Source: Patescibacteria group bacterium (lineage in GTDB: Bacteria > Patescibacteriota > Minisyncoccia > Phycocordibacterales > UBA1006). From it: a stretch of DNA of 64,000 nucleotides. This document shows, one piece after another, positions 4,916 to 56,570 of this stretch. A program made the translations under genes and the position numbers. Within the stretch, counting starts at the first letter, position 1; each line of letters opens with the position of its first letter. The stretch covers positions 2,809-66,808 of the forward strand of contig JAQBQS010000016.1 in the NCBI GenBank assembly GCA_028286885.1, written 5' to 3'. The notes under the pieces are model-generated. The model was not told the origin of the DNA. It saw only the letters and a program-made list of their open reading frames with translations, and ran no database searches.

Positions 4916-5078
4916 AATTTAAGGTTATATTTTGAATTATACACTAATTTAGGCAAAAACTTGTGTAATACCTACTCATAATATATGCTAAATCTACTCA
5001 TTGCAACAAACATTGATTTTATACCTTTAATCCCTATAAATTGCAATCTGATTAATAGCTTATAATCAAAACATATTT

Positions 5079-5366: not shown

Positions 5367-5369
5367 TTT

Positions 5370-6104: not shown

Positions 6105-6297
6105 TCAAATGTTTTATGATGGTTCTACAACCATTAAGGTGTTAGTTTAATATTTACAAAACCATAATAAATTGAATCAATAAGGCTTTTGAGTCAATGA
6201 ATATTTTGTTCTCATTGCGGATAAGACTTCGTTCCATGTTAGAATCATATTCTGCAAGGTGTTCCATTCTAGGGACATGATGCGCACCACTTCGCAA

Positions 6298-6333
6298 AAA
6301 AGCCATTCGTCAAAACGAATGGCTTTTTTGCGA
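6298..6333. terminator. rho-independent terminator
   Basis: aaaaaaGCCATTCGTcaaaACGAATGGCttttttg. Confidence 0.6.
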
Positions 6334-6361
6334 AAAATATGAGTATGCTATAGTAACGAAT

Positions 6362-7773: not shown

Positions 7774-8055
7774 CTATTTGACTGCGTCCTTCAAAGCCTT
7801 TGCGGCTCGGAACTTTGGAACGGTTGTCGCTGCAACCTGGACTGTCTCGCCCGTCTTCGGGTTTCGAGCTGTTCGTGCTGCGCGCGCTTTCGCTGAGAAG
7901 ATTCCGAGTCCGGCGAGCGAGACTTCACCTCCTTTTTTCAAAGTTGATGTGATCTCGTCGATAAACATCTGGACAACTTCCTCGGCCTGGACCTTGGTTC
8001 CGCCGATTTTCGCGTGGATCAAATCGGCAAGTGCTGCTTTGTTCATGTTCATAGG
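7774..8055 (-). CDS. hup: HU family DNA-binding protein
   Basis: MNMNKAALADLIHAKIGGTKVQAEEVVQMFIDEITSTLKKGGEVSLAGLGIFSAKARAARTARNPKTGETVQVAATTVPKFRAAKALKDAV classic HU/IHF fold sequence. Confidence 0.85.
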   Translation of the reverse strand, partial: PMNMNKAALADLIHAKIGGTKVQAEEVVQMFIDEITSTLKKGGEVSLAGLGIFSAKARAARTARNPKTGETVQVAATTVPKFRAAKALKDAVK

Positions 8056-8178
8056 AACGTGTGCGTCCGTCCCGCCCGTCGGCGGTTCGGACAAAATGAT
8101 TAGGACTTGTAATTAGCTGATCAGCCTTTTGCTTCCAAAAAGCATAATCATTGTAGCATAAGGGTTTTTAGGGACTAC

Positions 8179-8859
8179 TTGACTATAAACTTTATTTATG
8201 ACATGATGTTTTGGAATAAAACCGTTATAATTGAACATTTTAAACTAAAAGACAAGAATATGGCTATAAGAAATCAAGACAAAACAGTCATTGTAACCTA
8301 CGGGGGAAGCTTGATGAAGGACTATTCGCTCATCAGCGAACGGTGTGAATCAGTTTGTGATGCGGTAGAGCAGAGTGAAACCGATAAAACATACATTATT
8401 TTGGCAGCAGGATTTAATCCCAAGGAAAAAACCAATAAGCCGTTCAAAGAGTTAATGGCGGAAGACATTGAGATTATGCTCGAAGGAAAAAGATATGAGC
8501 GTATCGCCGACGGTATGTCAGCTGATTTAGTCAAAGGAGAGCATCTCGTCAAAATTATGCCGACAGCGGGAAACCATTGGGGGACACTCAAACAGACGGA
8601 GGCGATGCTGCATGAAATAGGCCTTCTGAAAGATGTCAAAACAATTCATGTTGTCATCACCGAGGAAAACATTCCTCAGCTGAAATTTATCTGGCGGCTT
8701 TTTTACAAAGGCGATGCCAAGCTTGAATTCTCCGGCAAGCCGCGCGGCGGAAGAAGCCATTACTACAGGTACGTGCTGGAAAATTTGCGCAAGGTGAGAG
8801 CGCTCCTCTACTGGTTCTTCAAAAAGGATCTGGAGCGAACGCTTGATATCGATGAATGA
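8179..8859 (+). CDS. hypothetical protein
   Basis: 226-aa ORF; start uncertain (internal Met at MAIRNQDK); no confident motif. Confidence 0.3.
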   Translation: MTINFIYDMMFWNKTVIIEHFKLKDKNMAIRNQDKTVIVTYGGSLMKDYSLISERCESVCDAVEQSETDKTYIILAAGFNPKEKTNKPFKELMAEDIEIMLEGKRYERIADGMSADLVKGEHLVKIMPTAGNHWGTLKQTEAMLHEIGLLKDVKTIHVVITEENIPQLKFIWRLFYKGDAKLEFSGKPRGGRSHYYRYVLENLRKVRALLYWFFKKDLERTLDIDE

Positions 8860-8917
8860 TTTTAAACACAATATCCGCACATTGCTGTGCGGATTTTTTA
8901 TTTAAAAAACTTCTAAG

Positions 8918-8965
8918 CCACCACACCAAATTTCCTTTCCTTAAAAAGGAAATTTGGTGTGGTGG
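8918..8965. terminator. long perfect inverted repeat, probable bidirectional terminator
   Basis: CCACCACACCAAATTTCCTTTcctTAAAAAGGAAATTTGGTGTGGTGG (about 21-bp arms) between convergent genes; a second hairpin ATCCGCACAttgcTGTGCGGATtttttt at 8872-8902. Confidence 0.5.
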
Positions 8966-10930: not shown

Positions 10931-11305
10931 ATGTGCGCATGTAAAAGTCACGAGAATAAGAATGTGAAAATTGAAAAATTTACAATTATTCATCATTCAA
11001 AAACTTTTATTATGCAAAACATGTTAGTTGTTACAGCCGCGGTGGGCAGCTTTTTTTACGAGGGACATGATGATCCGAAGACATTTTTCCTAAGCGTAAA
11101 ACCTGGTGATTCTTCGGAAGAGCTTGTTTCTACGGTAGTGGAAAAGTTGTATCGAGTTTTTCGCCCAGAGGATCTTTCCTTCGGGAATGGCTTCGTTGGG
11201 ATAATCCACGACCTCGATCCCCAGGGCGGCCTGATTCGAGAAATCGAACAGAAGTTTAAAGAGCGTTTGGGTAGGGACGAGATCACCGTTCAGGTGAATG
11301 GGTAA
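10931..11305 (+). CDS. hypothetical protein
   Basis: 124-aa ORF directly downstream of motif copy 1. Confidence 0.35.
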   Translation: MCACKSHENKNVKIEKFTIIHHSKTFIMQNMLVVTAAVGSFFYEGHDDPKTFFLSVKPGDSSEELVSTVVEKLYRVFRPEDLSFGNGFVGIIHDLDPQGGLIREIEQKFKERLGRDEITVQVNG

Positions 11306-11334
11306 TACCAAGTATTGGCGAGAGTTTCTCGCCA

Positions 11335-11376
11335 TTTTTATCAGAGTCTTGAATTTAATTCGAGGTTCTGCAGAAA
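11335..11376 (+). promoter_or_regulatory. repeated intergenic motif copy 2 (TATCAGAGTCTTGAA-loop-TTCGAGGTTCTGCAGAAA)
   Basis: Follows hairpin GGCGAGAGTTTCTCGCC + T-run; stem CTTGAAT/ATTCGAG. Confidence 0.5.
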
Positions 11377-11476
11377 GCACATTCAAACAAAATATAAATA
11401 TACGTGCTGTTGTATCCATGCAAAATTATCTATTCAAAGAGTTGGAATAGAAAAAAACAAAACAAAATTTTGCAAG

Positions 11477-11989
11477 ATGGAAAAAACAGTATCACGACGT
11501 TGTTCGCTTAGGTATTGCAATTCCTCGGTAGTGAGCTCACTTCAAGTGATCCACTACGGTGCCAGCAGGTTTGAGTTTTCAAAGTTTAATCCCATTGCGA
11601 ACCACTTCGGTACGTATGGAATTAAACCGAGAAGCGGCGGTCTTTGGACCTCGCCGGTTAACTCAAATCATTCCTGGAGAGGTTTCTGCGAAGGTGAAGA
11701 TTTCAATCTTCATACCTTGAGTTCGTCTTTTCGCCTCTCGTTTCATGGTTGCGCCAAAATCGCAATCATTGACTCGTACGGGGACTTGGAGAACCTTCCG
11801 ATGAGGAGTTTTCCAAAGTCGATGGCTGAAACCGATGTCGATTGGGAGCTTGTTGCTCGCAATGCAGACGCGGTTTGGCTTACGGCGAAAGGCGAGACGA
11901 GGACGAGGCTTTCGGCCCCGTACTTGTTGAACGGATGGGACTGCGAAACAGTTCTCATCATGAATCCGAATTGCTTCTACCTCGTGTAG
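11477..11989 (+). CDS. hypothetical protein (start moved downstream of motif copy 2)
   Basis: ORF 11315-11989; the first ATG after the motif is at 11477 (MEKTVSRR...); no recognized domain. Confidence 0.3.
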   Translation: MEKTVSRRCSLRYCNSSVVSSLQVIHYGASRFEFSKFNPIANHFGTYGIKPRSGGLWTSPVNSNHSWRGFCEGEDFNLHTLSSSFRLSFHGCAKIAIIDSYGDLENLPMRSFPKSMAETDVDWELVARNADAVWLTAKGETRTRLSAPYLLNGWDCETVLIMNPNCFYLV

Positions 11990-20965: not shown

Positions 20966-21040
20966 TCCCCTGTAGCTCAGCGGTAGAGCAATCGACTGTT
21001 AATCGATTGGTCGTAGGTTCGATCCCTACCGGGGGAGCCA
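20966..21040 (+). tRNA. tRNA-Asn (anticodon GTT), CCA encoded
   Basis: Acceptor TCCCCTG/CGGGGGA, D-arm GCTC-AGCGGTA-GAGC, anticodon stem ATCGA/TCGAT with loop CTGTTAA, T-arm GTAGG-TTCGATC-CCTAC, discriminator G, CCA. Confidence 0.85.
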
Positions 21041-21304
21041 GTTAGGGGTACTAGCAAGTTCTAGTACCAAGTTCCAAGGTTCTCGCATTGTAAACTCTAG
21101 GTTTTTTCCATCTACAAGCGGGTTCTGAATGAGATAATTCACAAAAGCTCTTTTTTCATGTGTATCAGAACTTTCAAAAAGTTCAGTTGCATCATGAGCA
21201 AGATTAAGTATTACGCCTACAGTGATTTTGTAAGTGTGATCTGCTTTTGTGTGCTCATCAAGTTCGATAGAAAGTCGCGCCTGTCGGTCTTTAAGCTGTT
21301 GCAA
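21026..21304 (-). pseudogene. C-terminal remnant of a large serine recombinase, overlapping the tRNA-Asn 3' end
   Basis: 92-aa ORF; ...DTHEKRAFVNYLIQNPLVDGKNLEFTMREP... parallels the C-terminal ...NKREQITLYSLFFEEFPTYEEIVSRTPKLTFIFKINE of the intact recombinase at 908-2599; no catalytic domain upstream; same 3' overlap geometry with a tRNA. Confidence 0.5.
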
Positions 21305-21389
21305 CTTTTTGTCATAGTCGTCAGGGGTAATTCGCCACTCCGATCATATTTCAGCCCGTACCGCTTAAAAGGCTCGTTATTGTGCTACA

Positions 21390-21953
21390 TTGATGAATAT
21401 GCAAGAAGATAAAAGGATCGCTACAATGGAAGCTCTGTATGAGAATTCAAAGAGCTTAATAACATCCGCCGACTCTCTTATAGAGTCAAAAATGCCCGTT
21501 GGGCATGCTTTTGCGCTACTTCAAACAGCTTGTGAGGAAATCGGAAGAATGTTGGCAATTTTACAAATCCTTCAGAGTGTTAAAGTTGAGCTTCCAAGGA
21601 ATAGGCATACTGTTAAGCACTCCCATTTTCTTAGATTTATGTCGATTCAGCCTGTAGGGCATCGACCTTACTTTGAGATCATTTCCGAGATTACTGGCTT
21701 TGAAATCAATCAAGAGAACTCAAAGGACGATGTTGTTCTTGATAAAATTCAGAAGTTTAGAGAGTCTTGCTTATATGTAAACGTTAATTTCGATAACAAT
21801 CATACGATTTCATCCCCAACTGAAGAGAGAATACAAGGTAAGGTTGAGCAGGTAAAGGAGCTAAAAGAAATTCTTGTAAATTATATGAATGGCATGCTTA
21901 AACCACTTATAGAAGCTCACAAAAACGGGAAGACGATATTCTCTAAATCTTAA
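21390..21953 (+). CDS. HEPN-like / AbiV-like protein
   Basis: 187 aa, predicted all-alpha; Rx4H motif (RHTVKH) within LPRNRHTVKH; size and composition resemble AbiV-type HEPN proteins (by recollection). Confidence 0.4.
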   Translation: MMNMQEDKRIATMEALYENSKSLITSADSLIESKMPVGHAFALLQTACEEIGRMLAILQILQSVKVELPRNRHTVKHSHFLRFMSIQPVGHRPYFEIISEITGFEINQENSKDDVVLDKIQKFRESCLYVNVNFDNNHTISSPTEERIQGKVEQVKELKEILVNYMNGMLKPLIEAHKNGKTIFSKS

Positions 21954-21959
21954 GGTCTT

Positions 21960-22925
21960 ATGGAAAATCTAAAATCTAAAAAACAAATACTTTTAACAGG
22001 GGCTGGCTTTTCAAAAAATTTCGGAGGCTTTTTAGCCAAGGAAATGTTCGATGAGATCTATAACAGCGACCATCTTAAAAAGTTTCCAACATTAAGAGAT
22101 AAGCTTCTTGCCACAGGTGATTTTGAGTTTTTTTATGCGGAAGCAATGCTCGATAAAAACCTAACTCCCGAAGAAAAAGGTGCTGTTAAAGCTGCAGTGC
22201 AAGAAGCTTACAATAACCTGGATAAAATCTTTCAGAGCTCTTTTATATCCAATGGTGATTTGCTAATGAGCTGGGGTGATTTTCTAAGTAAAAACTTTTC
22301 TGGTAATGGGTCGGCTGTAGGGTTATTTTTTACTCTCAATCAGGATTTGTTGCTGGAAAGAAGTTTTGGGAATGTTTGCCCTGGAGTCAAGTCATTTAGA
22401 ATGAACGGGCTTGGACAAGCAGATTCATTTTCTTCCTCTCATTCGGTAGTTCTACCACAAGACACTAAAAGGGCAGAGGCAGACATTTTAGTGGGTAACC
22501 TTTCCTATTTTAAGTTACATGGTTCCTATGGGTGGAAATCTTCTGACGGTACAGATCAGATGGTTGTAGGAAGTAATAAGTCAGAGCTGATTGAAAAGGA
22601 GCCGATCCTGAAGCTTTATTTCGATGTTTTTAAGAAGGCTATCGCCGAGGGAAACAAAAATATTTTAATAATAGGGTATGGGTTCAGGGACAAGCATATC
22701 AACGATGTCTTGATGGACGGGGTTGAAAACCATGGATTAAAAATAGTTTGTATAGGTAACTCATCAATAGCTGATGTTATTAAAAAAGCGGAAAATGAAT
22801 ACCCAGAATGCGTACCTTTACTAAGAAGGGTTGATAAGTACTTCCCTTACCCTTTAGAAAGAATCTTAAATAATAATGCAGGAGACACAAGCTTTCGAGA
22901 TAGGATCGAGGAAAATATTCGATAA
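21960..22925 (+). CDS. SIR2-like (defense-type sirtuin) NAD-binding domain protein
   Basis: N-terminal KQILLTGAGFSKNFGG (GAGxS NAD-binding loop) and FTLNQDLLLE (TTNYD-like motif of SIR2_2/ThsA-type domains); 321 aa. Confidence 0.55.
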   Translation: MENLKSKKQILLTGAGFSKNFGGFLAKEMFDEIYNSDHLKKFPTLRDKLLATGDFEFFYAEAMLDKNLTPEEKGAVKAAVQEAYNNLDKIFQSSFISNGDLLMSWGDFLSKNFSGNGSAVGLFFTLNQDLLLERSFGNVCPGVKSFRMNGLGQADSFSSSHSVVLPQDTKRAEADILVGNLSYFKLHGSYGWKSSDGTDQMVVGSNKSELIEKEPILKLYFDVFKKAIAEGNKNILIIGYGFRDKHINDVLMDGVENHGLKIVCIGNSSIADVIKKAENEYPECVPLLRRVDKYFPYPLERILNNNAGDTSFRDRIEENIR

Positions 22926-23026
22926 CCTTAGCAATTCTTAGCATTATTTAGAGAATGTTAGATTTTCATATAATCGCAGATCCATCTTAATACTCCTCCA
23001 ATTAAGGGTTCTGAACTTGCTTACGA

Positions 23027-23036
23027 GGGGGAGCCA
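23027..23036 (+). repeat. 10-bp direct repeat of the tRNA-Asn 3' end (GGGGGAGCCA), putative att-type boundary
   Basis: Exact match to 21031-21040; extended imperfect match taccgGGGGGAGCCAgtta vs tacgagGGGGGAGCCAagta. Confidence 0.4.
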
Positions 23037-23133
23037 AGTATTGACGATTTATCGAATATATTGTAATGAAAAATCACCATATTAATATGGTGATTTTTCA
23101 TTTATGTGCTATAAGATAAATACAACTAAATCA

Positions 23134-23279
23134 GTAGCCTAAACTCTTGAGTGATCGAGAGCATGGTGAAATAAACCCAGTAAAGATTAAAAAACCCATC
23201 ATATGGGGCTATCTTTACTGGTCGTATCTGGAAACGGATACGGAGGGCGAAAGCTCTCACCTATGTGGTGGGCTTTTTG
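23134..23279 (+). ncRNA. conserved structured RNA motif, copy B
   Basis: See copy A (3211-3358); compensatory stem substitutions; ends GGGCTTTTTG. Confidence 0.6.
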
Positions 23280-23423
23280 CTTGAATTATTAGTTTTATAT
23301 TTCGACTATATCTTCTAAGAGAAATTATTTTTTGAGCTAAGCCTATAACTTCTCTTTAGAAATAATTTAACTCGCTTTGATAAGGTAATTTACCTATAAA
23401 AAGCCTTCAGTAAATGCATTTTC

Positions 23424-24425
23424 ATGGAAAAAAATAACAAAAAGAGTTCGTTAGGAAAAATTGTTGCGATTATGTTCTTTAGCGGATTTGTTCTTCTGAT
23501 TGGGTGTCTTGTCTTAGGATTCAAATATGTATGCCGGCACGAGGCATGCTCGATTTCTTCCCAGAAGCCCTATGTGGTTTCCATAAAAACTGAGGAAGGG
23601 AAAGGTGTGCATGTTGAAAATAAAGGATCTATTTTCTCGATTTTTTACAAAGTCCAGAATGGAAACGGACCCGCTGAAGATTTTTTTAACGTTGATACAA
23701 GTAAGTTTGCAATTCAGGACTTGTCAGTCGATTTGGAGAGCCCCTTTTTTAGTTGTTCTCAGCGAAGAGAGAAGAAGATTATATATGTCATTTTAGATGT
23801 TTCGAAATCGGTTGTTCAATCGGCAGGCGAGGACTATTTCAGCAGAGTTACTTCTACCATACAAAATATTTTAGCCTCGGACAGTCTTGAGCCTGGCGAT
23901 CAAATTCGAATTAGATTTATGGGAAATAATAATGACGCGCTTGATAATCTTGATTTTACCGGACCTCGTTTCAAATATTCAGTTCAAAAGAATTCAGTTC
24001 AAAAGAAAATAACTCTTACTCTTACGGATTACTCGCGTGATCATTTAACGAAATGTCAAAATACATCAGGCGCGATTTCTCTAGAAGATGTTATTGGTCA
24101 TATTCAAAGTTCATATGAGAAACGCATCCAAACTCCGGATAATACGACGAATATTTCCGGTTTGTTGAAACAGATATCAAATGAAGTTTCTTTGGAACAG
24201 GAGCGATTTGAATCGGTTCGATACATCATCTTTACGGACGGTGACTCTACTGACGAATACGACGGATGCGATTACTTGTCCGCAGATAAATGCGGAACTG
24301 ACATCAAAAGTCTCAACTTGAATCATGACCTTTCAAATCGCGCGTATGTCATCTGGGTCAAGGATTCGTGGACACAAGGAGTGTTTAGAAAACTATTCGA
24401 CGGCATGTCCGTTAATTTCCAATAG
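23424..24425 (+). CDS. membrane-anchored vWA (von Willebrand factor A) domain protein
   Basis: N-terminal TM helix; MIDAS DxSxS = ILDVSKS; downstream IIFTDGDSTDE typical vWA motif; 333 aa. Confidence 0.5.
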   Translation: MEKNNKKSSLGKIVAIMFFSGFVLLIGCLVLGFKYVCRHEACSISSQKPYVVSIKTEEGKGVHVENKGSIFSIFYKVQNGNGPAEDFFNVDTSKFAIQDLSVDLESPFFSCSQRREKKIIYVILDVSKSVVQSAGEDYFSRVTSTIQNILASDSLEPGDQIRIRFMGNNNDALDNLDFTGPRFKYSVQKNSVQKKITLTLTDYSRDHLTKCQNTSGAISLEDVIGHIQSSYEKRIQTPDNTTNISGLLKQISNEVSLEQERFESVRYIIFTDGDSTDEYDGCDYLSADKCGTDIKSLNLNHDLSNRAYVIWVKDSWTQGVFRKLFDGMSVNFQ

Positions 24426-24428
24426 ATT

Positions 24429-25757
24429 ATGAAATTATTTAATTCTGACTACAACAAAGGATACAGGGCTGCCAAAAGCTATGTGCGGATTATCTCGCTT
24501 CCGAAAGACGTTACAAACAATATCAAGTCGTTTCTTGATTCCGTTTATGTAAGTGCTGTGAGCGGACTTGCCCATATCCTCCAAGAAAATCTCAGCTATG
24601 CGGAAAACAGAATACGAACTATTGAAGTAGAATTGAAATCACTGAAAGATCGTAAAGAAAAACTGATTACGGAAGCAAATCAAATCGACGAGAAAGAAGT
24701 AACGGAACTTTTTTTGGGACAGGCTTCTGAGATCGAAGCCCGGATACAGGAATTTAATAGGAACATCGAACTTCTCAATGATCAGCTCAATGAATTAAAA
24801 AAAGAACACATTCAGGTTTCTTCGAAAGAAAAGCCAGTTGAAAAGACAAATAGCAAATCAGCTAGCTTCATCGGAAGTGTTATTCAAAAGTTACAGGAAT
24901 CAGCAAAAGAGTTTTCTACGATCGGACCCTGGTTTCTTCTGGTTTTGGTTGATTATGGGATTGCAGTTTCGTTTTTTAGTCAATATGCTGAAGGGCAGGG
25001 TTTTCTAGTTGAGGTAGTTGTCGGGTATCTTCTTCCTCTTGCTATAACACTTATTTCGATGGTTGCCATGCATATGGTAATAGATGGAGTGAAAAAACTT
25101 CAGTCCGACGATGCAGCTCCATCCACGGCTATATCAACTGTCGCGGCAGTCGTTATTTTGGCTTTGATTTTCTTCGGAATCCTTTTCATGAGAGTTCTGA
25201 ATGATGGTGACAATCTTGTCATGCAAATCGTCATTTGGGTTCTCTTCGTAGGACTTGTTATCGTAGTTGGATACGAACTTCATAAGAAAGGAAAAAGCCC
25301 TGGTGTCATTATCGAATATCCTGCAAAGATGATCGTATGTACATTAGGTCTCATATGCGGAGCAATTGCATGGCCATTCGAGCAGATCCACAATGTAACA
25401 ACGAAACAGAGAAACATAGGTCCCGAAGCGGAACTTAAGAAGAGTATGGTGTACATCCAAGAGCGCATCAATAACCAATTTGCTGAAAAAGCTAGGCTTG
25501 AAGGAAAGCTTACTAATCTTCCGAGAGAGAAAATGCAGTTTACTTCCACGAATATCGCGATTCTGAGACAGCAGAAGATGAACATGGCTGAGAAGGATAT
25601 TCAAGAAATAGATGCAATCATTTACGATAATCAAGCCGAACTTGTAAAATCAAAAGCAGCCGAAAAATCATTAAAAGATCGTTTGATGGAAATACGAACG
25701 GGATCAAACGATGGCGCCATGAAACAGCTTATGAAAAGATTGAGGCAAAAGTCGTAG
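24429..25757 (+). CDS. coiled-coil / 4-TM / coiled-coil membrane protein
   Basis: Long heptad-like N- and C-terminal segments flanking four hydrophobic helices (GPWFLLVLVDYGIAVSFF..., LLPLAITLISMVAM..., VAAVVILALIFFGILF, IVIWVLFVGLVIVVGY); 4-nt gap after the vWA gene. Confidence 0.45.
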   Translation: MKLFNSDYNKGYRAAKSYVRIISLPKDVTNNIKSFLDSVYVSAVSGLAHILQENLSYAENRIRTIEVELKSLKDRKEKLITEANQIDEKEVTELFLGQASEIEARIQEFNRNIELLNDQLNELKKEHIQVSSKEKPVEKTNSKSASFIGSVIQKLQESAKEFSTIGPWFLLVLVDYGIAVSFFSQYAEGQGFLVEVVVGYLLPLAITLISMVAMHMVIDGVKKLQSDDAAPSTAISTVAAVVILALIFFGILFMRVLNDGDNLVMQIVIWVLFVGLVIVVGYELHKKGKSPGVIIEYPAKMIVCTLGLICGAIAWPFEQIHNVTTKQRNIGPEAELKKSMVYIQERINNQFAEKARLEGKLTNLPREKMQFTSTNIAILRQQKMNMAEKDIQEIDAIIYDNQAELVKSKAAEKSLKDRLMEIRTGSNDGAMKQLMKRLRQKS

Positions 25758-25758
25758 T

Positions 25759-25890
25759 ATGTTTGCGTTCATACTCTTTGCTATTTTCTGTTATGGTATC
25801 TACGAGCTTTTCCGTCATGGAAAAATTGGAATTGCGATATTTCTTATTCTCGCATTCCTAGTTTGGGCGTTCTTCAGCTTTTTGTAAAAA
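25759..25890 (+). CDS. small hydrophobic peptide (43 aa), below the ORF-track cutoff
   Basis: ATG at 25759 one nt after the upstream stop; MFAFILFAIFCYGIYELFRHGKIGIAIFLILAFLVWAFFSFL = two TM-like segments; followed by a terminator hairpin at about 25896-25925. Confidence 0.3.
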
Positions 25891-25975
25891 TACATAAATG
25901 CTTGCAAGTGCAGGCATTTGTTTTGAAACTCAGGTGGTTTATCAAAAATTTAACTCTATATGATAAAGTATTAAT

Positions 25976-26221
25976 ATGAAATTTATCAAAAATATATCCC
26001 TCGGGATTATTGCCCTTCTTGTTGTTTTTGCCATGGCGCATCCGGCCTTTGCGAAATCTTCGTATTATACGAATTCATCGCATGTCAAAGTTCATGTTCC
26101 GACATGGGAACAGCGTGTTCCTGTTGGTGCGACGGCGCAGTGCAGAGATCGGTCTTACAGTTACAGTCAGCATCGTCGCGGGACGTGCTCGGGGCATAAA
26201 GGAGTTGCGAGCTGGCTATAA
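25976..26221 (+). CDS. secreted DUF3761-like protein (paralog of 61222-61473)
   Basis: Signal peptide + CRDRSYSYSQHRRGTCSGHKGVASWL, matching the CxDGxYSxSxHRxGTCSxHGGV-type DUF3761 signature. Confidence 0.5.
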   Translation: MKFIKNISLGIIALLVVFAMAHPAFAKSSYYTNSSHVKVHVPTWEQRVPVGATAQCRDRSYSYSQHRRGTCSGHKGVASWL

Positions 26222-44794: not shown

Positions 44795-44894
44795 TGAGCA
44801 TCTTCGAATCCGCCTTAACCGGTGGATTTTTTAATGGCATTATCCGACCTCATGGCATTTTACCCCCGCTCCTTTTCGTGATAGCATCAATGGT

Positions 44895-47501
44895 ATGAAT
44901 CTCAATCCTAAAAACTGGTTCGAACTCCAGCAGAAGCGCAAGGCGGTGCGGGCGGACTTGGCCAAGGAAACCGGCATGCGATCCTCCGAGGCTCTCGACA
45001 AAAGCGCGGAAGCCGACGGCATGAACGACCTTCTCGGTGCAATTGCGAGCGGAAACCTCGCGAATGTTTCGCTCGACACCGGAGCCGTCGACGGCGTCGC
45101 AAAATCGGAATATGTCAGGCATCTGCAGGAAACGCTGCGGCAATTGAACGAGGAAGCCGAGAAGTTCGGCCCGGTGACCGAAGAGTCGGTCGAAACCTAC
45201 CGCCAGCAGTCAGGCGAGCATTACGCCTATAAGAAAGTGAACCAGGAACTGCTGAAGCTCGACACTCTGCGCGAGGAGACGGACCGCGCGATTTTCGAAA
45301 TTTTGAAAAACGGCAAGGGCGAAGGCTTTACGCGCATGGACGAAGCGAAGCTCGCCGAGTACGAGAAGATCAAGGGCGCGATCACGAACCGGACGGCGTC
45401 GCTCGAACAGAATCCGGAAACGGCGCTGTTCGTGCGCATGCACACGCTCGACTCGTACCACGATCAGCTCGTCAAGGAAAACTACATCGAGACGCCGTCG
45501 CGAACGGAATACATCGACTGGATCAAGGACCAGATGAAGAACCACCGCGCGGTGCTTCTTGAAGGCGCGACGGGAACCGGAAAAACGGAGCTTCTGATCC
45601 ATACGTCAAAGTCGCTTCTCGGCAAGAACAATCCCGAGATATTGGCCGGAAATCCGCACGTTACGAAATACGATCTCTTGGGAAGCCAGGGATTGGAATC
45701 CGACGAGCATGGAACGAAAACCGTCGACAAGCCTGGATGCCTGCCGCGAGCGATGAAGGACGGCAACCTGCTGATCCTCGACGAGATGAACCAGATCGAA
45801 ACCAAGGTCCGATTCGCGCTCAAGCCGTTTTACCGCTACTCGGGAGTCCGCGGCGGCGAGGTTTCCGTCGAAGGCGTGAACTATCCGGTCAACGACGGAT
45901 TCCTGATCGCGGCTACCGCGAACCTCAAGAGCGAAAAGCACAAGGACCGCTTCGACCTGGACGCGGCCGAGTCGCGCGTATTCGCGATGAAGCGCATCGA
46001 GTACCCTCCGCAAAACGAGCTGTACGACATGGCGCTCGCGGCGCTCCGCAGGAACGACGGAACGTACCTCGTCTCCGAAGGTTCGGCGAAATCGACGCTG
46101 AAGTATCTGGTGGACGCGGCGCGCGACATTCAGGAAGGCTACGAGAAAGCGCTGTCCGCGGGATTTGACCCGTCATCCGGAAAGAAGACGTCGCTTGAAA
46201 AAGCGGTGCTCGATCCCGGCGAATTCATGGCAATGGTCAAGTCGTACACGGCATCCTACGCGTCCGGAAAAACATTCGAGGACCACATCGACGCGCGATT
46301 GGCCGATTTCGTCGCCAAAGGATCGTACCCGGAAAAAGACCGCGTGCTTCTCGCGAAAATTCTGACGTCGAAGGGATTCCTCTTGAAAAACTTTGATCCC
46401 GAAATGCTCCATTTGACGGACGACACGCTGCGAGATTCCCTTGCCCAGTGGCCGATGCCGGCGCAAGACACCCTTGTCCGCGAGCGCGGCACGATGACGG
46501 AACGCGAAGCGGCGATGCTCGATCCGTACGAACTGCGCAAGGAAATGATCGCGAAAACGACCGACAGCTTCGTCGGTATGATTCCCGAGGAAGAAAAGCA
46601 GATGATCCTCAACGCGGCGGAGCGCGGCATCAATTATCTCGAAGCCAAGGAAGCGATCGGGAAAGAAAATTTCCTCGGTCCCGACGAGATCAAGTTCCGA
46701 TTCTCGATCGACGTCAAGAACGCTCCGAAGGTTCCGTTTTCAAAACAGGAACTCATGGACGCGAAAAAGCTCGGCCAGCAGCTGGTTCTGTACGTCGACA
46801 AGACGAAAGACGGCAAGCCCCTGACGATTTCCGCCATGCGCGAGCAGACGAAAAACAAGACGAGCCAGGCAACCGGACTCTTCGCGGACGGCGACGATTA
46901 TTTCAAGAACAACGGGCTTGATCAGGAAACGCCGCGCGTCGGCTGGCGCCTGACTTCCAAGGAGTGCCTGCCGAATTCGGAAAACAAGAACTATTTCGGA
47001 CAGACGCAGGTTGCCGTCGATTACTTGAAAAACGAAGTCTTCAAGGGAACTAAAATTCCCAAGGAATACGCCGAAGCGTTCGACGAATGGGAAGCGGTCA
47101 AGAAAACGAATCTCAAGGAGCAGTCCGAATCGGGCGACAGCGCGAAATGGATGGCCGCGTCGCAGCAGCTCGCGAATCTCAAGATTACGCAGCTGACCCG
47201 CGAGCGATTGTCCGAAGTCATGTACCGCCTCGCGATTCAGGAATCGAAAAACAAAGAGCGTTTGCTCGATTCCGCGGGCCGCACGGTCTACTATACGTGG
47301 ACGAGCTCCCGTGGTTCCGATGGCGACTTGGCTCTCGCCGGCCGCTTCGATTCCGACGGCGTGGATGTGTGCGCGGGTGGGAGCCGAGGGATTCCGGCTC
47401 GCGCATCGGGGTTTGTCTCTCTCGCAGTTGAATTTAGGATATCAGGAATTTTTGAATCATGCGGAACAAACCGCCCGGATAGGGCGGTTTGTGGCGAATG
47501 A
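44895..47501 (+). CDS. AAA+ ATPase (AAA_5/MoxR-like) with long C-terminal extension ending in a DGR variable region; VR is frameshifted as assembled
   Basis: Walker A GATGTGKT, Walker B LLILDEMN; C-terminal ...YYTWTSSRGSDGDLALAGRFDSDGVDV... overlaps VR; in the TR-matching frame the protein would end ...IGVCLSRS* at 47431. Confidence 0.6.
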   Translation: MNLNPKNWFELQQKRKAVRADLAKETGMRSSEALDKSAEADGMNDLLGAIASGNLANVSLDTGAVDGVAKSEYVRHLQETLRQLNEEAEKFGPVTEESVETYRQQSGEHYAYKKVNQELLKLDTLREETDRAIFEILKNGKGEGFTRMDEAKLAEYEKIKGAITNRTASLEQNPETALFVRMHTLDSYHDQLVKENYIETPSRTEYIDWIKDQMKNHRAVLLEGATGTGKTELLIHTSKSLLGKNNPEILAGNPHVTKYDLLGSQGLESDEHGTKTVDKPGCLPRAMKDGNLLILDEMNQIETKVRFALKPFYRYSGVRGGEVSVEGVNYPVNDGFLIAATANLKSEKHKDRFDLDAAESRVFAMKRIEYPPQNELYDMALAALRRNDGTYLVSEGSAKSTLKYLVDAARDIQEGYEKALSAGFDPSSGKKTSLEKAVLDPGEFMAMVKSYTASYASGKTFEDHIDARLADFVAKGSYPEKDRVLLAKILTSKGFLLKNFDPEMLHLTDDTLRDSLAQWPMPAQDTLVRERGTMTEREAAMLDPYELRKEMIAKTTDSFVGMIPEEEKQMILNAAERGINYLEAKEAIGKENFLGPDEIKFRFSIDVKNAPKVPFSKQELMDAKKLGQQLVLYVDKTKDGKPLTISAMREQTKNKTSQATGLFADGDDYFKNNGLDQETPRVGWRLTSKECLPNSENKNYFGQTQVAVDYLKNEVFKGTKIPKEYAEAFDEWEAVKKTNLKEQSESGDSAKWMAASQQLANLKITQLTRERLSEVMYRLAIQESKNKERLLDSAGRTVYYTWTSSRGSDGDLALAGRFDSDGVDVCAGGSRGIPARASGFVSLAVEFRISGIFESCGTNRPDRAVCGE
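47304..47428 (+). repeat. DGR variable repeat (VR)
   Basis: 125 nt matching TR 47696-47818; all 16 substitutions fall at TR adenines, plus a 2-nt length difference (VR TGCGCG vs TR AACA). Confidence 0.85.
47469..47497 (+). other. GC hairpin downstream of VR (DGR homing-associated stem-loop)
   Basis: ACAAACCGCCC-ggata-GGGCGGTTTGT about 40 nt after the VR 3' end, position typical of the hairpin/cruciform that enhances DGR retrohoming. Confidence 0.5.
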
Positions 47502-47695
47502 AAGTGTGCTAGAATGATCCGCACCGGGAATGCGAAGGCATCAATGATGCCTTTCCCCGAAACATACATTACTGCTTGCCTTCCTCTTCGCGCGAGTATT
47601 TCGACAGCCGCGGCGCGCGCGAAAAAATGACATCCTCGACCTTCTTATGATAATTAAGAACGAAGAAGAACTGACCCGGACGGGGGAAGGCAACA

Positions 47696-47818
47696 AGCTC
47701 CCGTGATTCCGATGGCAACTTGGCTCTCGCCGGCAACTTCGATTCCGACGGCGTGAATGTGAACAGGTGGAAGCCGAGGAATTCCGACTCGAACATCGGG
47801 GTTTGTCTCTCTCGAAGT
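47696..47818 (+). repeat. DGR template repeat (TR)
   Basis: Adenine-rich counterpart of VR, with AAC codons at the variable positions; shared 3' IMH-like end CATCGGGGTTTGTCTCTCTCG. Confidence 0.85.
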
Positions 47819-47837
47819 GATAACATGTCAAACGAAA

Positions 47838-47880
47838 ACGGAGCGGGCCCTTCAGGGCCGCGCTCCGTTTTCACTCTCTA
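47838..47880. terminator. GC hairpin with flanking A- and T-runs just 3' of TR and 3' of avd
   Basis: aaaacGGAGCGGGCCCttcaGGGCCgCGCTCCgtttt. Confidence 0.5.
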
Positions 47881-48184
47881 TTTTTTTAATCCAACCGCCG
47901 ATGATTTTTCCAAGTTCCGCCAAGTGTTCCGAGAGGATCACATGCGCCCGGTCGGGAAGGCATTTCGCGTCGTTTGCGATGCGCAGCCGAAGCTGGATGC
48001 TTTTGAGTTCGACGTCGATTTTATTAACCAGCAACAACTGGCTTGCACCCTTCTTGGACCGCGCGAGCATTCCCATCTCGAGCGCTTCGAAGGCCTTGGG
48101 GATGATCGGAAGTCCGAGGGCGTACCGGTCGAATTTTGGCATTTTGCCTACATACATATGCAACGCGACAATGAACTTGCACAT
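47852..48184 (-). CDS. avd: DGR accessory variability determinant (Avd)-like four-helix-bundle protein
   Basis: 110 aa: MCKFIVALHMYVGKMPKFDRYALGLP...HVILSEHLAELGKIIGGWIKKIESE; resembles bAvd (…SIPRKHG… and …LIAEVGRILGSWIARV…); it is the 3' end of the long antisense ORF 47852-50584. Confidence 0.5.
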   Translation of the reverse strand: MCKFIVALHMYVGKMPKFDRYALGLPIIPKAFEALEMGMLARSKKGASQLLLVNKIDVELKSIQLRLRIANDAKCLPDRAHVILSEHLAELGKIIGGWIKKIESENGARP

Positions 48185-48216
48185 TTTGGCCGCGAAAGCG
48201 CTCGACGCCAAAATTC

Positions 48217-48230
48217 GGGGGGGGGGGGGG
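48217..48230. repeat. homopolymeric G14 tract between divergent avd and RT starts
   Basis: aaattcGGGGGGGGGGGGGGtgattcag. Confidence 0.8.
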
Positions 48231-49279
48231 TGATTCAGGACACCTATTCTAACATCATCTCGCTCAAAAACTTGTTCACCGCGTGGAAGGAATTTATCAT
48301 CGGCAAGAAAAATAAAGCGGACGTTCTTGAATTCGGCACGATGTACGAGCAGGAATTGATCGCGCTCCACGCTTCGCTCGATCTCGGACGGTATTCGCAC
48401 GGCGGCTACCACGCGTTCATGGTCTGCGATCCGAAGCGCAGATCGATCAACAAGGCCCGGGTGCGCGACCGCGTTTTGCATCACGCGATCCACAGGCTTC
48501 TCGTTCCGATATTCGAGCCCGGGTTCATTTTCGATTCCTATTCGTCGAGAAAAGCCAAAGGCGTCCATGCGGCGCGCGAGCGATTCCGCGAATTCGCGCG
48601 CGTGCTGTCGCGGAACAATACGAAAACAGTCTGGGTTCTCAAATGCGACATCAGGAAATTTTTCGATTCGGTCGACCATGCGGTTCTTATGGGCCTTCTC
48701 GCGCGCAGGCTGAAGTGCCCGCGGACGCTCGCGCTTCTCGGCAATATCATCCGAAGCTACGACTCCGGCGCGGGGAAGGGAATACCGCTCGGCAACCTGA
48801 CAAGCCAGCTGTTTTCGAACGTCTACATGGATCCGTTCGACCAGTTCATGAAAAGGATCGTCCGCGCGAAATGCTATATAAGGTACGCGGACGATTTCGT
48901 GATCCTTTCCCGCGACCGCGACTATTTGGCACGCCTGATTCCGACGATCAACGCCTTCCTGGACAAAGACCTCAAGCTCCGGATGCATCCGAACAAAGTC
49001 GAGATCAAGAAATGGCATTCCGGAATCGATTTTCTGGGGGCGACGATGTTCCCGCATTTTCGCGTTCTGCGCACCAAGACCAAAAGGCGCGCGTTCAGAA
49101 AAATCAGGAAGAACATTATTTTTTACAAGAACGGACTCATCCAATACGAGGATCTTGTTTCGATCATCCGTTCGTATCTGGGAATCATGCAGCACGTGGA
49201 CTCGTTCGGCGTCAGGCGAGACCTCTTGTCGATGATCAGGAGCATGGGATCCGCAGGTGTGGAATTCTCGAAATTGTGA
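48230..49279 (+). CDS. DGR reverse transcriptase
   Basis: RT motifs IRKFFDSVDH (motif 2), IPLGNLTSQLFSNVYMDPFD (DGR-specific [I/L]GxxxSQ in place of QGxxxSP), YADDFVIL (YxDD); about 349 aa from the GTG at 48230; the track ORF starts upstream at 47720 inside TR. Confidence 0.8.
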   Translation: MIQDTYSNIISLKNLFTAWKEFIIGKKNKADVLEFGTMYEQELIALHASLDLGRYSHGGYHAFMVCDPKRRSINKARVRDRVLHHAIHRLLVPIFEPGFIFDSYSSRKAKGVHAARERFREFARVLSRNNTKTVWVLKCDIRKFFDSVDHAVLMGLLARRLKCPRTLALLGNIIRSYDSGAGKGIPLGNLTSQLFSNVYMDPFDQFMKRIVRAKCYIRYADDFVILSRDRDYLARLIPTINAFLDKDLKLRMHPNKVEIKKWHSGIDFLGATMFPHFRVLRTKTKRRAFRKIRKNIIFYKNGLIQYEDLVSIIRSYLGIMQHVDSFGVRRDLLSMIRSMGSAGVEFSKL

Positions 49280-49291
49280 TAGTCTTGGCAC

Positions 49292-51319
49292 ATGAAAGGC
49301 CCCGTTTTCAAGATCGAACAACAAGACGCCGGCGATAAAAACGCGAAGCAAGAAGGCAAAGCCGCCCGGGTATTTGAGACCCATAAGGACTTTTTCGCCA
49401 ATTACACGAAACACGGCAACTTGGAAATCAAGCCCGCAACCGACGCGGGACTTGAAACGTCGGCGATCGATTTGTCGGATCCGAAGCGTCCGAAAATATT
49501 CCTCCACGACGATTTTCTCGAGGAAAAAAGCGGCGGAAGCGACATCGCGGGACTGTGGGCCGCGTCGCACGAGTGCGAGCATCTCGTGGAACTTTTGGGG
49601 CTCTTGAACGAAAAGGACGGGCCGGGAATCTGGCGCGACCGGCAGGCGGCGATCGATGCCGATCCGAGCTTGCACATTCTGGACAATTGCCTGGACGACG
49701 TGAAAATGAACCGAAGCGTCGTTGCGAAGGCTCCGGTCACGCGCGGCAGCTTCCATGAAATTTACGACAAGAAGCTTTTTGCGGACACGGATTTTACCAA
49801 GATCCCGAAACATCTGCAGTTTGCGTACGCGTTGCTGAACGAAGACCCGATCAACGGAGGGCGCGCGTGCACCGTTTCGCCCGACGTGCGCCAGGAAATT
49901 ACGCGCCTCCGGGCCGTTCAAAACGGGCAAAAGCAAAATTTGTTCAACTTCATGACCAATCCCGATGTCGGAATGAAGGACCGCCTGAAGCTGCAGGAAA
50001 TGTTTTTCGAGCCGGTCTATAAAAAATTCAAGCGGGACGACGACAAGAATTGGGAGCCGCCCAAAGACGGCGACAAGAAAGAAGGCGAGGGAAGCCCCGA
50101 TCAGAATCAAGGACAGCAAGGCGAAGGGCAGGATCAAGAAGGCGGCCAGCCTCCAAAGTCCCAAGACCAAAAACCTTCCGGCGACGGAAAAGGCAAGCCG
50201 GAGAAAAAAGAAGGTCCGTCCGAAAACGGCGATCCGAAAGATTCCGAATCCGAACCCGGAGACGGCAAGAAAACGGATGAAAAATACAAGGAGCTCTACG
50301 ACAAGTTCAACGAGGCGATGAAGCAGGCCGTCCCGAAAGATCTCGAGGAAAAAGCCGTCGAGGAATTCATCGACAACAAATCCGATCGGAAAAGCTACGA
50401 GGAGCAATCGCTCGAAGCGTACGCGCTCGCCGAAGGCGTGACGGTCGAAGATTTGAAAGGCTATCGCCGCTACATCGACCGCGTCGAGGAATTGCGCAAT
50501 CCCGAGACCGACGAACTGCTGATCGAGGAAATCCGCAACATTTTCCGCCGCATCATCGCCGAGCGCACCGCAAAGCTGCCGCAATCTAAAATGCCGCAGA
50601 GCGAAGGCGTCACGATCCGGTTTCCCGCCCAGGCCGTCGTCCAGACCAAAGCCGGAAATCCCGAACCCGAAGTCTGGCAGACGATCGAAGAGAAGGAGGC
50701 GGTCAAGGAATTGATCGGCAAGTTCGACGTGACGCTGGTGTGCGACCGGTCCCGCTCCATGGGTTCAGGCGGAAAACTGGAAGCCCAGCGGACGACGTCG
50801 GCTCTGGTTTTGGAAGCTTTGCGCGAGTTCGGCACGGACCTCGAGGACGCGGCGGCGGATTTGGAATCGAATCTCGAAATCAGGACGGAAGTTTGGTCGT
50901 TCGGCGACGACGCGCAGTGCGAACTTTTGAAAGCACTGTCTCCGACGCTCTCCGAAAAAGAACGGGTGCTCGTCTATCAGAAGCTGTCGCAGGTGCCCGG
51001 AAACTCGACCAAGGATTACCAGACCCTCGAAAAGCTGCTGAAGAGTTTGGACCCGAAAGATCTGGACGCGATCGCCGAGAAGAAGCTGCGCAAAATCGTC
51101 TTTGTCGTTTCCGACGGCGAGAGCAGCGACGTCGCCGCAACGAAACGGATTCTCGCGAAGCTTCGCGAAAAAGGAATTCTCGTCTACGGAATCGGCGTCA
51201 CGAACGAAGCGCGATCGATCGAGACGACCTATGCGCCCTCCGGCCGCGTCTGTCCCGACCAGAACCAGCTCCCGGTTGTCATGGGCGAACTCTTGAAAGA
51301 GCAGCTGGAGACCGTCTGA
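49292..51319 (+). CDS. vWA-domain protein (MoxR-partner type) with acidic/Gln/Gly-rich low-complexity linker
   Basis: MIDAS VCDRSRSMGSGGK (DxSxS), later IVFVVSDGESSDV; 675 aa; sits where the vWA partner of a MoxR-type ATPase is expected. Confidence 0.6.
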   Translation: MKGPVFKIEQQDAGDKNAKQEGKAARVFETHKDFFANYTKHGNLEIKPATDAGLETSAIDLSDPKRPKIFLHDDFLEEKSGGSDIAGLWAASHECEHLVELLGLLNEKDGPGIWRDRQAAIDADPSLHILDNCLDDVKMNRSVVAKAPVTRGSFHEIYDKKLFADTDFTKIPKHLQFAYALLNEDPINGGRACTVSPDVRQEITRLRAVQNGQKQNLFNFMTNPDVGMKDRLKLQEMFFEPVYKKFKRDDDKNWEPPKDGDKKEGEGSPDQNQGQQGEGQDQEGGQPPKSQDQKPSGDGKGKPEKKEGPSENGDPKDSESEPGDGKKTDEKYKELYDKFNEAMKQAVPKDLEEKAVEEFIDNKSDRKSYEEQSLEAYALAEGVTVEDLKGYRRYIDRVEELRNPETDELLIEEIRNIFRRIIAERTAKLPQSKMPQSEGVTIRFPAQAVVQTKAGNPEPEVWQTIEEKEAVKELIGKFDVTLVCDRSRSMGSGGKLEAQRTTSALVLEALREFGTDLEDAAADLESNLEIRTEVWSFGDDAQCELLKALSPTLSEKERVLVYQKLSQVPGNSTKDYQTLEKLLKSLDPKDLDAIAEKKLRKIVFVVSDGESSDVAATKRILAKLREKGILVYGIGVTNEARSIETTYAPSGRVCPDQNQLPVVMGELLKEQLETV

Positions 51320-55607: not shown

Positions 55608-56570
55608 CTAATTTATCATTGCACCCATATTCTGCCTAAAGGTTATTCTATCCCTTCCTTTTACAATTCCTCCCATGAGAGTGTTGGCGACTACCTTACC
55701 GCCGGGTTCTATGGTTATTATCCCTCCCATCAGTTTGTCGAGAATAAGCGTAACGCCTGACTTCACTGTAACCATTCCGCCCATAATTTTATTGATGGTT
55801 ACGGTCCCGGTTCCGTTAAGTACGGTGTTTCCTCCCATTATCTTGTCCAAGCTTGGTGACGTACTAGCATCAATCGTTTTACTACCCATAGCTTCGGAAT
55901 AATTTCCCTGTGAAGAGGAAGTAAACGTTGAAGAATAGGTTGTTGATTTGCCGTAGGATACGTCTCCGGACGACGTCTGCGTTGTTTTTATTTTCCCCTT
56001 TTCAAATGTGATAGCCGAGGTGCCATTCATATCGAAACTGGTTGCTCCGAACACGATCGATCCTCCCGTGCGGACCGGCTGGGGCACGCCCGCATCTTGG
56101 GCCATTTTTTCGGAAATCGGTTTTTTGTTGGAATCGAAATAGTGCACCTGTCCGTCCTTGATCAGGACATAGACAGTGGCATTTGGAGCTCCTTCGCGGT
56201 TCGGCTCCCGTCTCGGCTCTTCTTTCCTTTCGCGCCGAGGCTCCTCTCTGGTTGCTTCCTGTTTCGGCGGATTTGCGAGTATTTTTTCAATTTTGTCGAG
56301 CATCACTGCCTGATCTGAATTGTTCTCTACGAGAACAGCTTGGATCGCCAACAGAAGGGGCGTCAGTTGTGCCTGCATAGAGGGCCGTTTCTCGTATTCA
56401 TCGGTAACGAGATCAGTTGCTTGGTAAATGTATGCGACGCGCTTGCGAAGTTCTTCGGGGAGCCTGTCTTGGTGAAGACGCTTCCAAAAGAGTCTTCGGA
56501 ATTCTTTCATGCTGAAGTCTTCCATATTATTCTTCGGTTGGCCGAAATTTGAATCGCCTGGCATTTTCAT
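55608..56570 (-). CDS. hypothetical protein with C-terminal (L/I)MGG beta-repeat region (bactofilin-like?)
   Basis: Five repeats ...KIMGGNTV..., KIMGGMVTV, KLMGGIITI, TLMGGIVKG, QNMGAMIN. Confidence 0.3.
   Translation of the reverse strand: MKMPGDSNFGQPKNNMEDFSMKEFRRLFWKRLHQDRLPEELRKRVAYIYQATDLVTDEYEKRPSMQAQLTPLLLAIQAVLVENNSDQAVMLDKIEKILANPPKQEATREEPRRERKEEPRREPNREGAPNATVYVLIKDGQVHYFDSNKKPISEKMAQDAGVPQPVRTGGSIVFGATSFDMNGTSAITFEKGKIKTTQTSSGDVSYGKSTTYSSTFTSSSQGNYSEAMGSKTIDASTSPSLDKIMGGNTVLNGTGTVTINKIMGGMVTVKSGVTLILDKLMGGIITIEPGGKVVANTLMGGIVKGRDRITFRQNMGAMIN

Follow-up and report, generated by a model that had tools for sequence, protein, structure and literature searches.

A diversity-generating retroelement coupled to a MoxR-type AAA+ ATPase and a vWA partner protein in a Patescibacteria cassette

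We analysed a stretch of 64,000 nucleotides (hereafter the window) from the genome assembly of a Patescibacteria group bacterium (GenBank GCA_028286885.1, contig JAQBQS010000016.1, positions 2,809 to 66,808 of the forward strand), in which a diversity-generating retroelement (DGR) lies between the gene of an AAA+ ATPase, the target of the element, and the gene of a protein with a von Willebrand factor A (vWA) domain (Table 1). The sequence features by which a DGR is recognised were found at this locus, namely a template repeat (TR) that differs from the variable repeat (VR) at adenines, a reverse transcriptase (RT) of the DGR type, the accessory protein Avd, and a VR located at the C-terminus of its target, in a C-type lectin (CLec) fold and with an initiation of mutagenic homing (IMH) region on its 3' side. 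A sequence-only reading of the same DNA had proposed this TR/VR pair, the Avd-like gene, the RT with its LGNLTSQ and YADD motifs, the ATPase with Walker A GATGTGKT and Walker B LLILDEMN, and a 675-aa vWA protein with a metal ion-dependent adhesion site (MIDAS), and each of these assignments stood up in the comparisons described below.

The roles of the two repeats could be assigned from their differences. A base-by-base comparison detected 15 substitutions, and every one of them sits on an adenine of the downstream repeat, in which 15 of 27 adenines are affected (chance of about 1e-10); the downstream repeat is therefore the TR and the upstream one the VR. Since the VR also holds two extra bases (TG), the last 43 residues of the 868-aa open reading frame (ORF) present in the assembly are out of frame; the target, described earlier as an 868-aa protein, has 844 residues when intact. 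Once the TG is removed, the target ends in ...RGWEPRDSGSRIGVCLSRS, with a stop codon (47429-47431) directly 3' of the VR, and the repaired protein agrees residue by residue with the translation of the TR, except at the codons templated by adenines. In the assembled allele the frameshift deletes a nearly invariant terminal G...SR segment (GV..SR) of the CLec fold. The theoretical diversity of the VR is 3.5e14 protein variants, and the site may still be undergoing diversification. The sequence of the target protein has already been deposited, as a hypothetical protein from a Patescibacteria metagenome-assembled genome (MAG).

Insertions and deletions have been described in 7% of DGRs, 11 out of 25 of them frameshifting, and 74% adjoin AAC (PMC5758913). 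The frameshifted VR of the window probably arose in one of two ways, by slippage during retrohoming, in which case a further homing event could overwrite it, or as an artefact of assembly. A search for an empty site or for a second assembly of the VR returned only two contigs of the run SRR13312974, with breaks at the VR as well as at the poly-G tract located between avd and the RT gene; this independent assembly stops 12 nt into the VR and resumes just past the poly-G, leaving the insertion uncovered. An assembly break at the VR is compatible with heterogeneity of the VR, but it is no proof of it.

The RT, which carries the motifs IPLGNLTSQ and YADD, matches the RVT_1 family (3e-23). Its best match in the PDB is 8ub7, a 328-aa RT, over nearly the full length (1.5e-43), whereas the match to group II intron RTs reached 3.7e-20 and those to retron RTs were at 1e-4 or weaker. 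Identity to phage DGR RTs, including those of Bordetella phages, the archaeal virus ANMV-1 and crAss-like phages, amounts to 31-38% over 93-97% of the length. Judged by the LGxxxSQ motif and by these alignments, in which it is far closer to DGR RTs than to RTs of group II introns or retrons, the enzyme is of the DGR type, as the sequence-only reading had expected. The entries of the 8ub7 series presumably represent the Bordetella phage bRT complex, for which a literature check gave no confirmation.

The Avd protein is supported by a match to Pfam bAvd above the cut-off (2.8e-13) and by a match to NCBIfam DivGenRetAVD with an E-value of 3.3e-14, the score of which (53 bits) stays below the cut-off of 80; an exact look-up of the protein with five alternative starts found none of them on record. 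The avd gene lies on the minus strand, and it is found on the opposite strand in all 48 of the 48 related loci compared. Two longer ORFs that overlap the element were rejected as open-frame artefacts of this GC-rich DNA: a 910-aa ORF on the minus strand (47852-50584), in which only the 110 codons at the 3' end (avd) are a gene, and a 519-aa ORF on the plus strand (47720-49279) that runs from the TR into the RT gene, in which only the 349 codons at the 3' end (RT) are a gene. Given the spurious 910-aa ORF, automatic annotation may overlook avd.

Several elements around the repeats could be involved in the production of the TR RNA. Directly 3' of the TR, a very stable hairpin with a T-run extends into the stop of avd, which converges on it. 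This hairpin probably terminates transcription in both directions and defines the 3' end of a short TR RNA, and a significant hairpin is found 3' of the TR in 43% of 37 related TRs (such a hairpin was also seen in L002, L005 and L016). A hairpin 3' of the VR is present at 13% of related VRs. Taken together, the promoter match upstream of the TR and the hairpins suggest, without proving it, that the TR is transcribed as a short separate RNA.

The region between the divergent avd and RT genes contains a homopolymer of 14 guanines. Runs of 6-12 guanines were detected between avd and the RT gene in 12 of 51 related loci (L005 12591-12599, L007 697-706, L031, L042, L043, L061, L065, L077, L085 and others), as against 1.1% of random control segments of the same length, and the feature is strand-specific, given that no similar run of cytosines was found and that such runs are never longer than 3. 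Because the RT frame stays open upstream to the ATG at 48158, the guanines could be translated. Slipped-strand mispairing in the tract may serve as a phase-variation switch for the RT (and avd), or the tract may be a mere homopolymer prone to assembly errors; if it is phase-variable, a recurrent poly-G in front of the RT would constitute a simple switch for controlled hypermutation.

Table 1. Features of the DGR cassette in the window (positions counted from the first base of the window).
Feature	Position	Strand	Remarks
Cassette, extent by homology	44894..51309	+	One colinear block against L097 4564-11042, 72.5% identity
DGR target gene (ATPase)	44895..47431	+	844 aa in the intact reading; as assembled to 47501, 868 aa, through a +2 frameshift in the VR
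AAA+ core (residues ~203-356)	45501..45962	+	Walker A GATGTGKT, Walker B LLILDEMN, sensor-1 N343; midasin/NorQ/CbbQ-like
C-terminal VR-bearing module (residues 585-844)	46647..47431	+	Predicted CLec/FGE-type fold with helical insert
VR	47301..47428	+	128 nt; codes for the last 42 residues of the intact target; 19 codons with TR adenines
Insertion TG (+2) in VR relative to TR	47368..47369	+	Adjoins TR codon AAC; frameshifts the target
GC-rich hairpin 3' of VR/IMH	47457..47501	+	20-nt arms, 5-nt loop; z = -3.2
Sigma-70-like promoter match	47627..47654	+	~40 nt upstream of TR; ATGACA-16-GATAAT, 10/12, consensus match only
TR	47693..47818	+	126 nt, 27 adenines, six in-frame AAC/AAT codons
Strong hairpin with T-run	47834..47872	.	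Directly 3' of TR; overlaps 3' end/stop of convergent avd; z = -8.8
avd accessory gene	47852..48184	-	110 aa from ATG 48184; strand opposite to TR and RT
G14 homopolymer	48217..48230	+	Between divergent avd and RT; last G is first base of the candidate GTG start of RT
DGR RT	48230..49279	+	349 aa from GTG 48230; frame also open upstream to ATG 48158
vWA partner, 675 aa	49292..51319	+	N-terminal HExxH domain, charged low-complexity linker, helical region, C-terminal vWA/MIDAS domain
HECEH motif (residues 93-97)	49568..49582	+	N-terminal domain of vWA partner
vWA domain (residues 479-639)	50726..51208	+	MIDAS D485, S487, S489, T573, D608

The N-terminal part of the target contains an AAA+ core, matched by Pfam AAA_5 at residues 220-311 (7.9e-10). 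When a profile of 22 members of this ATPase family was compared with the PDB, the top matches were the AAA modules of midasin (1e-40), followed by NorQ (2.9e-11), CbbQ (1.7e-8) and McrB (5e-4), in agreement with the AAA+ fold that had been proposed. Across the family T226, G227, K230 and T231 (GxTGTGKT), D296, E297 and N343 are invariant, and R352 and R361, assigned to the arginine finger, nearly so. By these sequence criteria, the core of the target is of the MoxR-type AAA+ branch whose members work with a vWA/MIDAS domain.

The C-terminal module that bears the VR has no match in Pfam or NCBIfam. A structure model of residues 585-844 in the repaired frame, built from a 58-sequence alignment (pLDDT 96.7, pTM 0.93), shows a CLec/FGE-type fold, the kind of scaffold suspected when this part of the protein was read from sequence. 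A Foldseek search with the model returned no significant match, and its list consists almost entirely of FGE, EgtB, PvdO, Mtd and TvpA. According to the model, the VR sits in this fold in such a way that the 19 codons with TR adenines fall on its last three strands and on the tail. Because neither the target nor the vWA partner has a hydrophobic segment or a signal peptide (maximum KD19 hydropathy of 0.92 and 0.72, respectively), both proteins are probably cytoplasmic, and a role in adhesion, one of those that had been suggested for the system, is unlikely.

The vWA domain of the partner protein is matched by Pfam VWA (1.4e-7 in the window protein; all eight of eight family members match, the best at 1.6e-12), with DRSRS at residues 485-489 and with MIDAS residues that are invariant or nearly so in the family, which comprises 339 clusters at 50% identity (E <= 1e-30). 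By sequence, the only similarities to the PDB are to generic vWA and integrin I-domains; a match to CobT was discounted, since it falls in the charged low-complexity linker (residues ~246-335) that separates the N-terminal domain from the helical and vWA part. This N-terminal domain, for which no match was found in Pfam or NCBIfam, contains an HExxH motif whose residues H93, E94 and H97 are present in 49 of 49 family members, and N132, D136, H174 and Q176 are likewise invariant; the motif is possibly the site of a zincin-like metallopeptidase.

To establish how often the genes of this cassette occur together, we scanned metagenome contigs with an alignment of the N-terminal domain of the partner, retained the best 80 of 130 confirmed loci, and scored every ORF of these loci with profiles for all five proteins. 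The vWA gene was found together with the ATPase and/or the RT in 65 of the 80 loci, the other 15, L069 apart, being truncated at the relevant side, and the seven loci that were fully informative all contain ATPase, RT and vWA genes. Where the context was sufficient, the vWA gene was not found away from the ATPase, with L069 (1.5 kb upstream and 4.2 kb downstream available) as a possible true exception. The order seen in the window, with the RT gene directly upstream of the vWA gene, occurs in 50 loci and the order vWA-ATPase-DGR in 13; already among the first relatives, ATPase, RT and vWA stay together in two orders, and the CLec module is sometimes a separate gene between ATPase and vWA. Adenine-biased TR/VR pairs were identified in 37 loci (57 pairs, with 861 of 922 mismatches at TR adenines), and in 29 of 30 related loci the ATPase ORF ends in a VR. 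This conserved gene context, in which ATPase, DGR and vWA genes keep together over hundreds of CPR-type loci (CPR, candidate phyla radiation), marks the vWA gene as a true partner of the ATPase and the DGR. A scan of genome contigs with the ATPase alignment was dominated by the Walker A pattern and returned six loci.

Many relatives have more than one variable target. A second small VR target lies just downstream of the vWA gene in 10 of 23 loci. In L011, L040, L043, L048, L051, L062, L066, L070, L083, L089, L090 and L093 a second, sometimes a third VR is present under one TR, and the extra VRs typically end a small stand-alone CLec-module gene just 3' of the vWA gene. The window has no second VR target, and a gene of the HAD-family hydrolase type follows the vWA gene instead.

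Two relatives have unusual arrangements. The gene order of L015 is ATPase, CLec module, vWA and second CLec module (modules at 8001-8921 and 11022-11942); the two 921-nt modules differ at one base, their VR regions are identical, and no RT, avd or TR was found in the 12 kb examined. The pair was therefore discarded as evidence of diversification, the VRs being identical, and L015 represents either a recent duplication without diversification or a case in which the DGR acts from elsewhere. In L021 (2042-2622), VR and TR are still present, 15 of their 16 mismatches being at A, and the vWA gene begins 236 nt after the TR, with no avd or RT gene between them; the RT has either been lost from this cassette or is supplied in trans. 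Among the family members there are also three that carry labels from outside the candidate phyla radiation (CPR), namely L005 (uncultured Bdellovibrionales bacterium), P0083 (Xanthobacteraceae MAG) and P0090 (Omnitrophica MAG), which could be mis-binned CPR contigs or reflect a real spread beyond Patescibacteria.

The limits of the cassette were defined by comparison with its closest relative, L097, whose vWA protein is 73% identical. The block common to both runs from the start codon of the ATPase to the end of the vWA gene, and outside it nothing is shared; L097 has other flanks, with a transposase and a phage-type integrase just upstream, and in the window the cassette is flanked by purD, an HAD hydrolase gene and guaA. 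The GC content of the locus is 55.7%, compared with 45.0% in the rest of the window, 46-47% in the 10-kb flanks and 49-53% in neighbouring housekeeping genes. The contrast in composition reported earlier (58-60% against a much more AT-rich background) is therefore real, but smaller than stated, and the GC argument alone is weaker than it was made. The acquisition of the ~6.4-kb cassette as a unit, in line with the horizontal origin inferred from the sequence, is supported above all by the block and by the mobile flanks of L097, which weigh more than GC.

The best explanation of these observations, which we consider reasonably probable, is that the locus is a self-contained Patescibacteria cassette of ~6.4 kb in which a DGR of the CPR type (TR-(avd)-RT) is coupled to a two-protein machine. 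In such a system the TR would be transcribed alone, starting near 47655 and ending in the hairpin at 47834-47872; this RNA would be copied by RT and Avd with random bases opposite adenines, and the cDNA would replace the VR, giving rise to up to ~1e14 variants of a lectin-like surface. The ATPase would form a ring, as in NorQ, CbbQ and midasin, that displays the variable CLec domains as ligand sensors, and the vWA partner would dock on this ring, with its MIDAS, and maybe the zincin-like HExxH site, acting on the protein captured by the CLec domains. The ATPase and its partner would thus make up a programmable, ATP-driven device for recognition and remodelling (or cleavage), the most likely role of which would be that of an intracellular sensor of conflict or defence. 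The earlier proposal of a MoxR-vWA machine with a hypervariable C-terminal module is in this respect supported, and nothing that was examined by sequence or by model spoke for its refutation.

Some observations weigh against this explanation. The sole available allele of the VR is frameshifted, and a gapped TR/VR pair was found in just one of 57 related pairs (L077; first related loci, census loci and L097 included), the VR of L097 itself having the same length as its own TR (126 nt). In addition, L015, L021 and L088 have no RT in the DNA examined; the oligomerisation of the ATPase and its interaction with the vWA protein are proposed by analogy; and no effector domain or defence-system model was recognised by domain searches of the cassette proteins or by PADLOC, which gave no meaningful match for the ATPase, Avd or the vWA protein. 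Because no effector domain or defence model matches, the biological role is a conjecture. A bolder version, a 'split midasin', would make the locus an undescribed two-protein programmable system, with a CLec sensor varied by the DGR on an AAA+ ring, a partner that contributes MIDAS/vWA and a new HExxH effector, a mobile 6.4-kb island and a poly-G tract that switches hypermutation on and off; we regard this as a tentative possibility, on the doubtful side.

The frameshifted VR could also indicate a decaying locus, in which the target is a pseudogene and the DGR is inoperative. The loss of the conserved GV..SR segment through the +2 insertion and the rarity of gapped VRs among relatives agree with decay, as do L021, which keeps VR and TR without avd and RT, and L015 and L088, in which ATPase, module and vWA are present with no DGR in view. 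Nevertheless, the window retains an intact RT, Avd, TR and IMH region as well as the two intact hairpins, and all other ORFs of the cassette are open; active retrohoming is known to produce frameshifting indels beside AAC, which are overwritten in the following round (PMC5758913), and the independent assembly that breaks at the VR leaves room for an assembly artefact. We therefore judge decay to be unlikely. A different alternative takes the pair of proteins for a housekeeping assembly chaperone, like NorQ/NorD or CbbQ/CbbO, in which the DGR merely widens the range of clients, with no role in defence. It would fit the nearest solved AAA+ relatives, since NorQ, CbbQ and midasin are assembly or remodelling factors that use a MIDAS, as well as the lack of a matching defence model and the housekeeping nature of the flanking genes (purD, HAD hydrolase, guaA), but the cassette is discrete and mobile-looking, with an offset in GC and varied contexts (integrase and transposase in L097), many loci contain extra small VR targets, and a hypervariable binding surface suggests targets engaged in an arms race over a fixed client, which makes a pure chaperone improbable in our opinion.

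It is far less probable that an episymbiotic CPR cell uses the variable protein at its surface, as an adhesin or for receptor binding, to attach to its host in the manner of classical DGR targets, given that target and vWA partner are without signal peptide or hydrophobic segment, that the N-terminal fusion is to an ATPase needing cytoplasmic ATP, and that CPR targets have been reported to be without membrane domains (Roux 2021, PMC8144416). As for the vWA gene being a chance neighbour of the DGR and the ATPase, adjacency in one window alone would indeed prove no functional link; the co-occurrence in 65 of 80 loci and in all seven informative ones, the two gene orders that keep the genes together, and the homology with L097 that stops exactly at the end of the vWA gene have effectively refuted this idea. 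The CLec tail on an ATPase, the MIDAS/HExxH partner, the predicted cytoplasmic location and the mobility of the cassette favour the intracellular, ATP-driven recognition machine proposed above over an adhesin at the surface. DGRs are unusually abundant in CPR bacteria, and this locus and its relatives make the question of target function concrete and testable, as residues worth mutating can be named in Walker A/B, the MIDAS and the HExxH motif.

Comparison with the literature indicates that the basic design is not new, and in this regard the novelty implied by the sequence-only reading overreached. According to the passage of PMC10907252 that cites Paul 2017, fusions of AAA-ATPase and CLec are the commonest target architecture of CPR DGRs, and the ATPase could transduce signals sensed by the C-terminal region (Doré et al. 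2024, PMC10907252). Wu et al. 2018 defined in CPR a VR class, UVR4, whose targets match midasin, and an architecture B3, in which avd is encoded in reverse orientation between TR and RT and to which 90% of CPR DGRs belong (PMC5758913). CPR DGR targets are usually without recognisable domains (Roux 2021, PMC8144416). The window shares with the CPR AAA-ATPase/CLec DGRs the host, the TR-(avd)-RT layout with reverse avd, the midasin-like N-terminal part, the C-terminal VR, the lack of membrane domains and the adenine-specific differences; it has the B3 layout and, like the UVR4 class, a target that matches midasin, and nothing essential differs. For the VR of UVR4, Wu et al. did not settle on a fold (PMC5758913), whereas the module of the window is modelled as CLec/FGE-like. 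No mention of the vWA/HExxH partner, of the cassette from ATPase to vWA or of the poly-G tract was found in the CPR-DGR literature searched, Paul 2017 being outside that search. Thus the ATPase-CLec DGR is already known in CPR, and it is its obligatory vWA/HExxH partner that seems to be under-described.

A linkage of DGR, MoxR and vWA has been described in other phyla, in multicellular bacteria (Kaur et al. 2020, PMC7159879; PMC10907252). These MoxR-vWA ternary systems resemble the cassette in combining a MoxR-clade AAA+ protein, a vWA/MIDAS protein and a DGR that varies a CLec/FGS domain, in the logic of a variable sensor with an ATP-driven transducer, and in the charged linker, to which that of the window partner is similar (Kaur et al., PMC7159879). 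However, they carry the variable CLec on the vWA protein or on a separate target, whereas in the window it is on the ATPase, and they are defined by a third component (VMAP, iSTAND, FtsH or beta-propeller) together with effectors (peptidase, TIR and others). No such third component was detected with Pfam and PADLOC in the cassette, which encodes only the ATPase target, Avd, RT and vWA protein. The hosts of the ternary systems are cyanobacteria, proteobacteria and similar, and their RTs are of clade 5 as opposed to clade 2 for CPR (PMC7159879, PMC10907252). Since both the third component and the placement of the CLec domain disagree, the cassette is outside the ternary class, though it probably works along similar lines.

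Among proteins of known structure, NorQ/NorD, CbbQ/CbbO and midasin provide the closest AAA+ relatives, and, like the window partner, they have a C-terminal vWA domain with MIDAS after a charged linker and a helical region. The window ATPase differs from NorQ, CbbQ and midasin in its long N-terminal region and its hypervariable CLec tail, and its partner has no sequence similarity to NorD, CbbO or midasin beyond the vWA domain and possesses an HExxH N-domain of its own. The classical variable proteins of DGRs, namely Mtd of Bordetella phage BPP-1, TvpA of Treponema denticola and TaqVP, are located at the surface or in tail fibres and have only 7-14% identity to the window module, which, unlike them, contains a helical insert and forms part of a cytoplasmic ATPase.

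Elsewhere in the window, two copies of the LOOT RNA (Rfam RF03000) were detected at 3213-3335 and 23136-23258 with scores of 81 and 93 bits. Both are preceded by a tRNA gene (863-933 and 20966-21037, respectively) at a distance of about 2.2 kb, and each lies inside a block of low GC content (35-39% GC; ~1001-7000 and 21001-26000). The two regions were considered as duplicated islands, which was ruled out because only the RNA is common to both (79% identity over 152 nt). Unrelated to the DGR cassette is a 320-aa ORF on the minus strand (55608-56570), whose C-terminal half is composed of repeated (K/T)(I/L)MGG(x) units, as would be expected of a repeat protein of the beta-helix or bactofilin-like kind.

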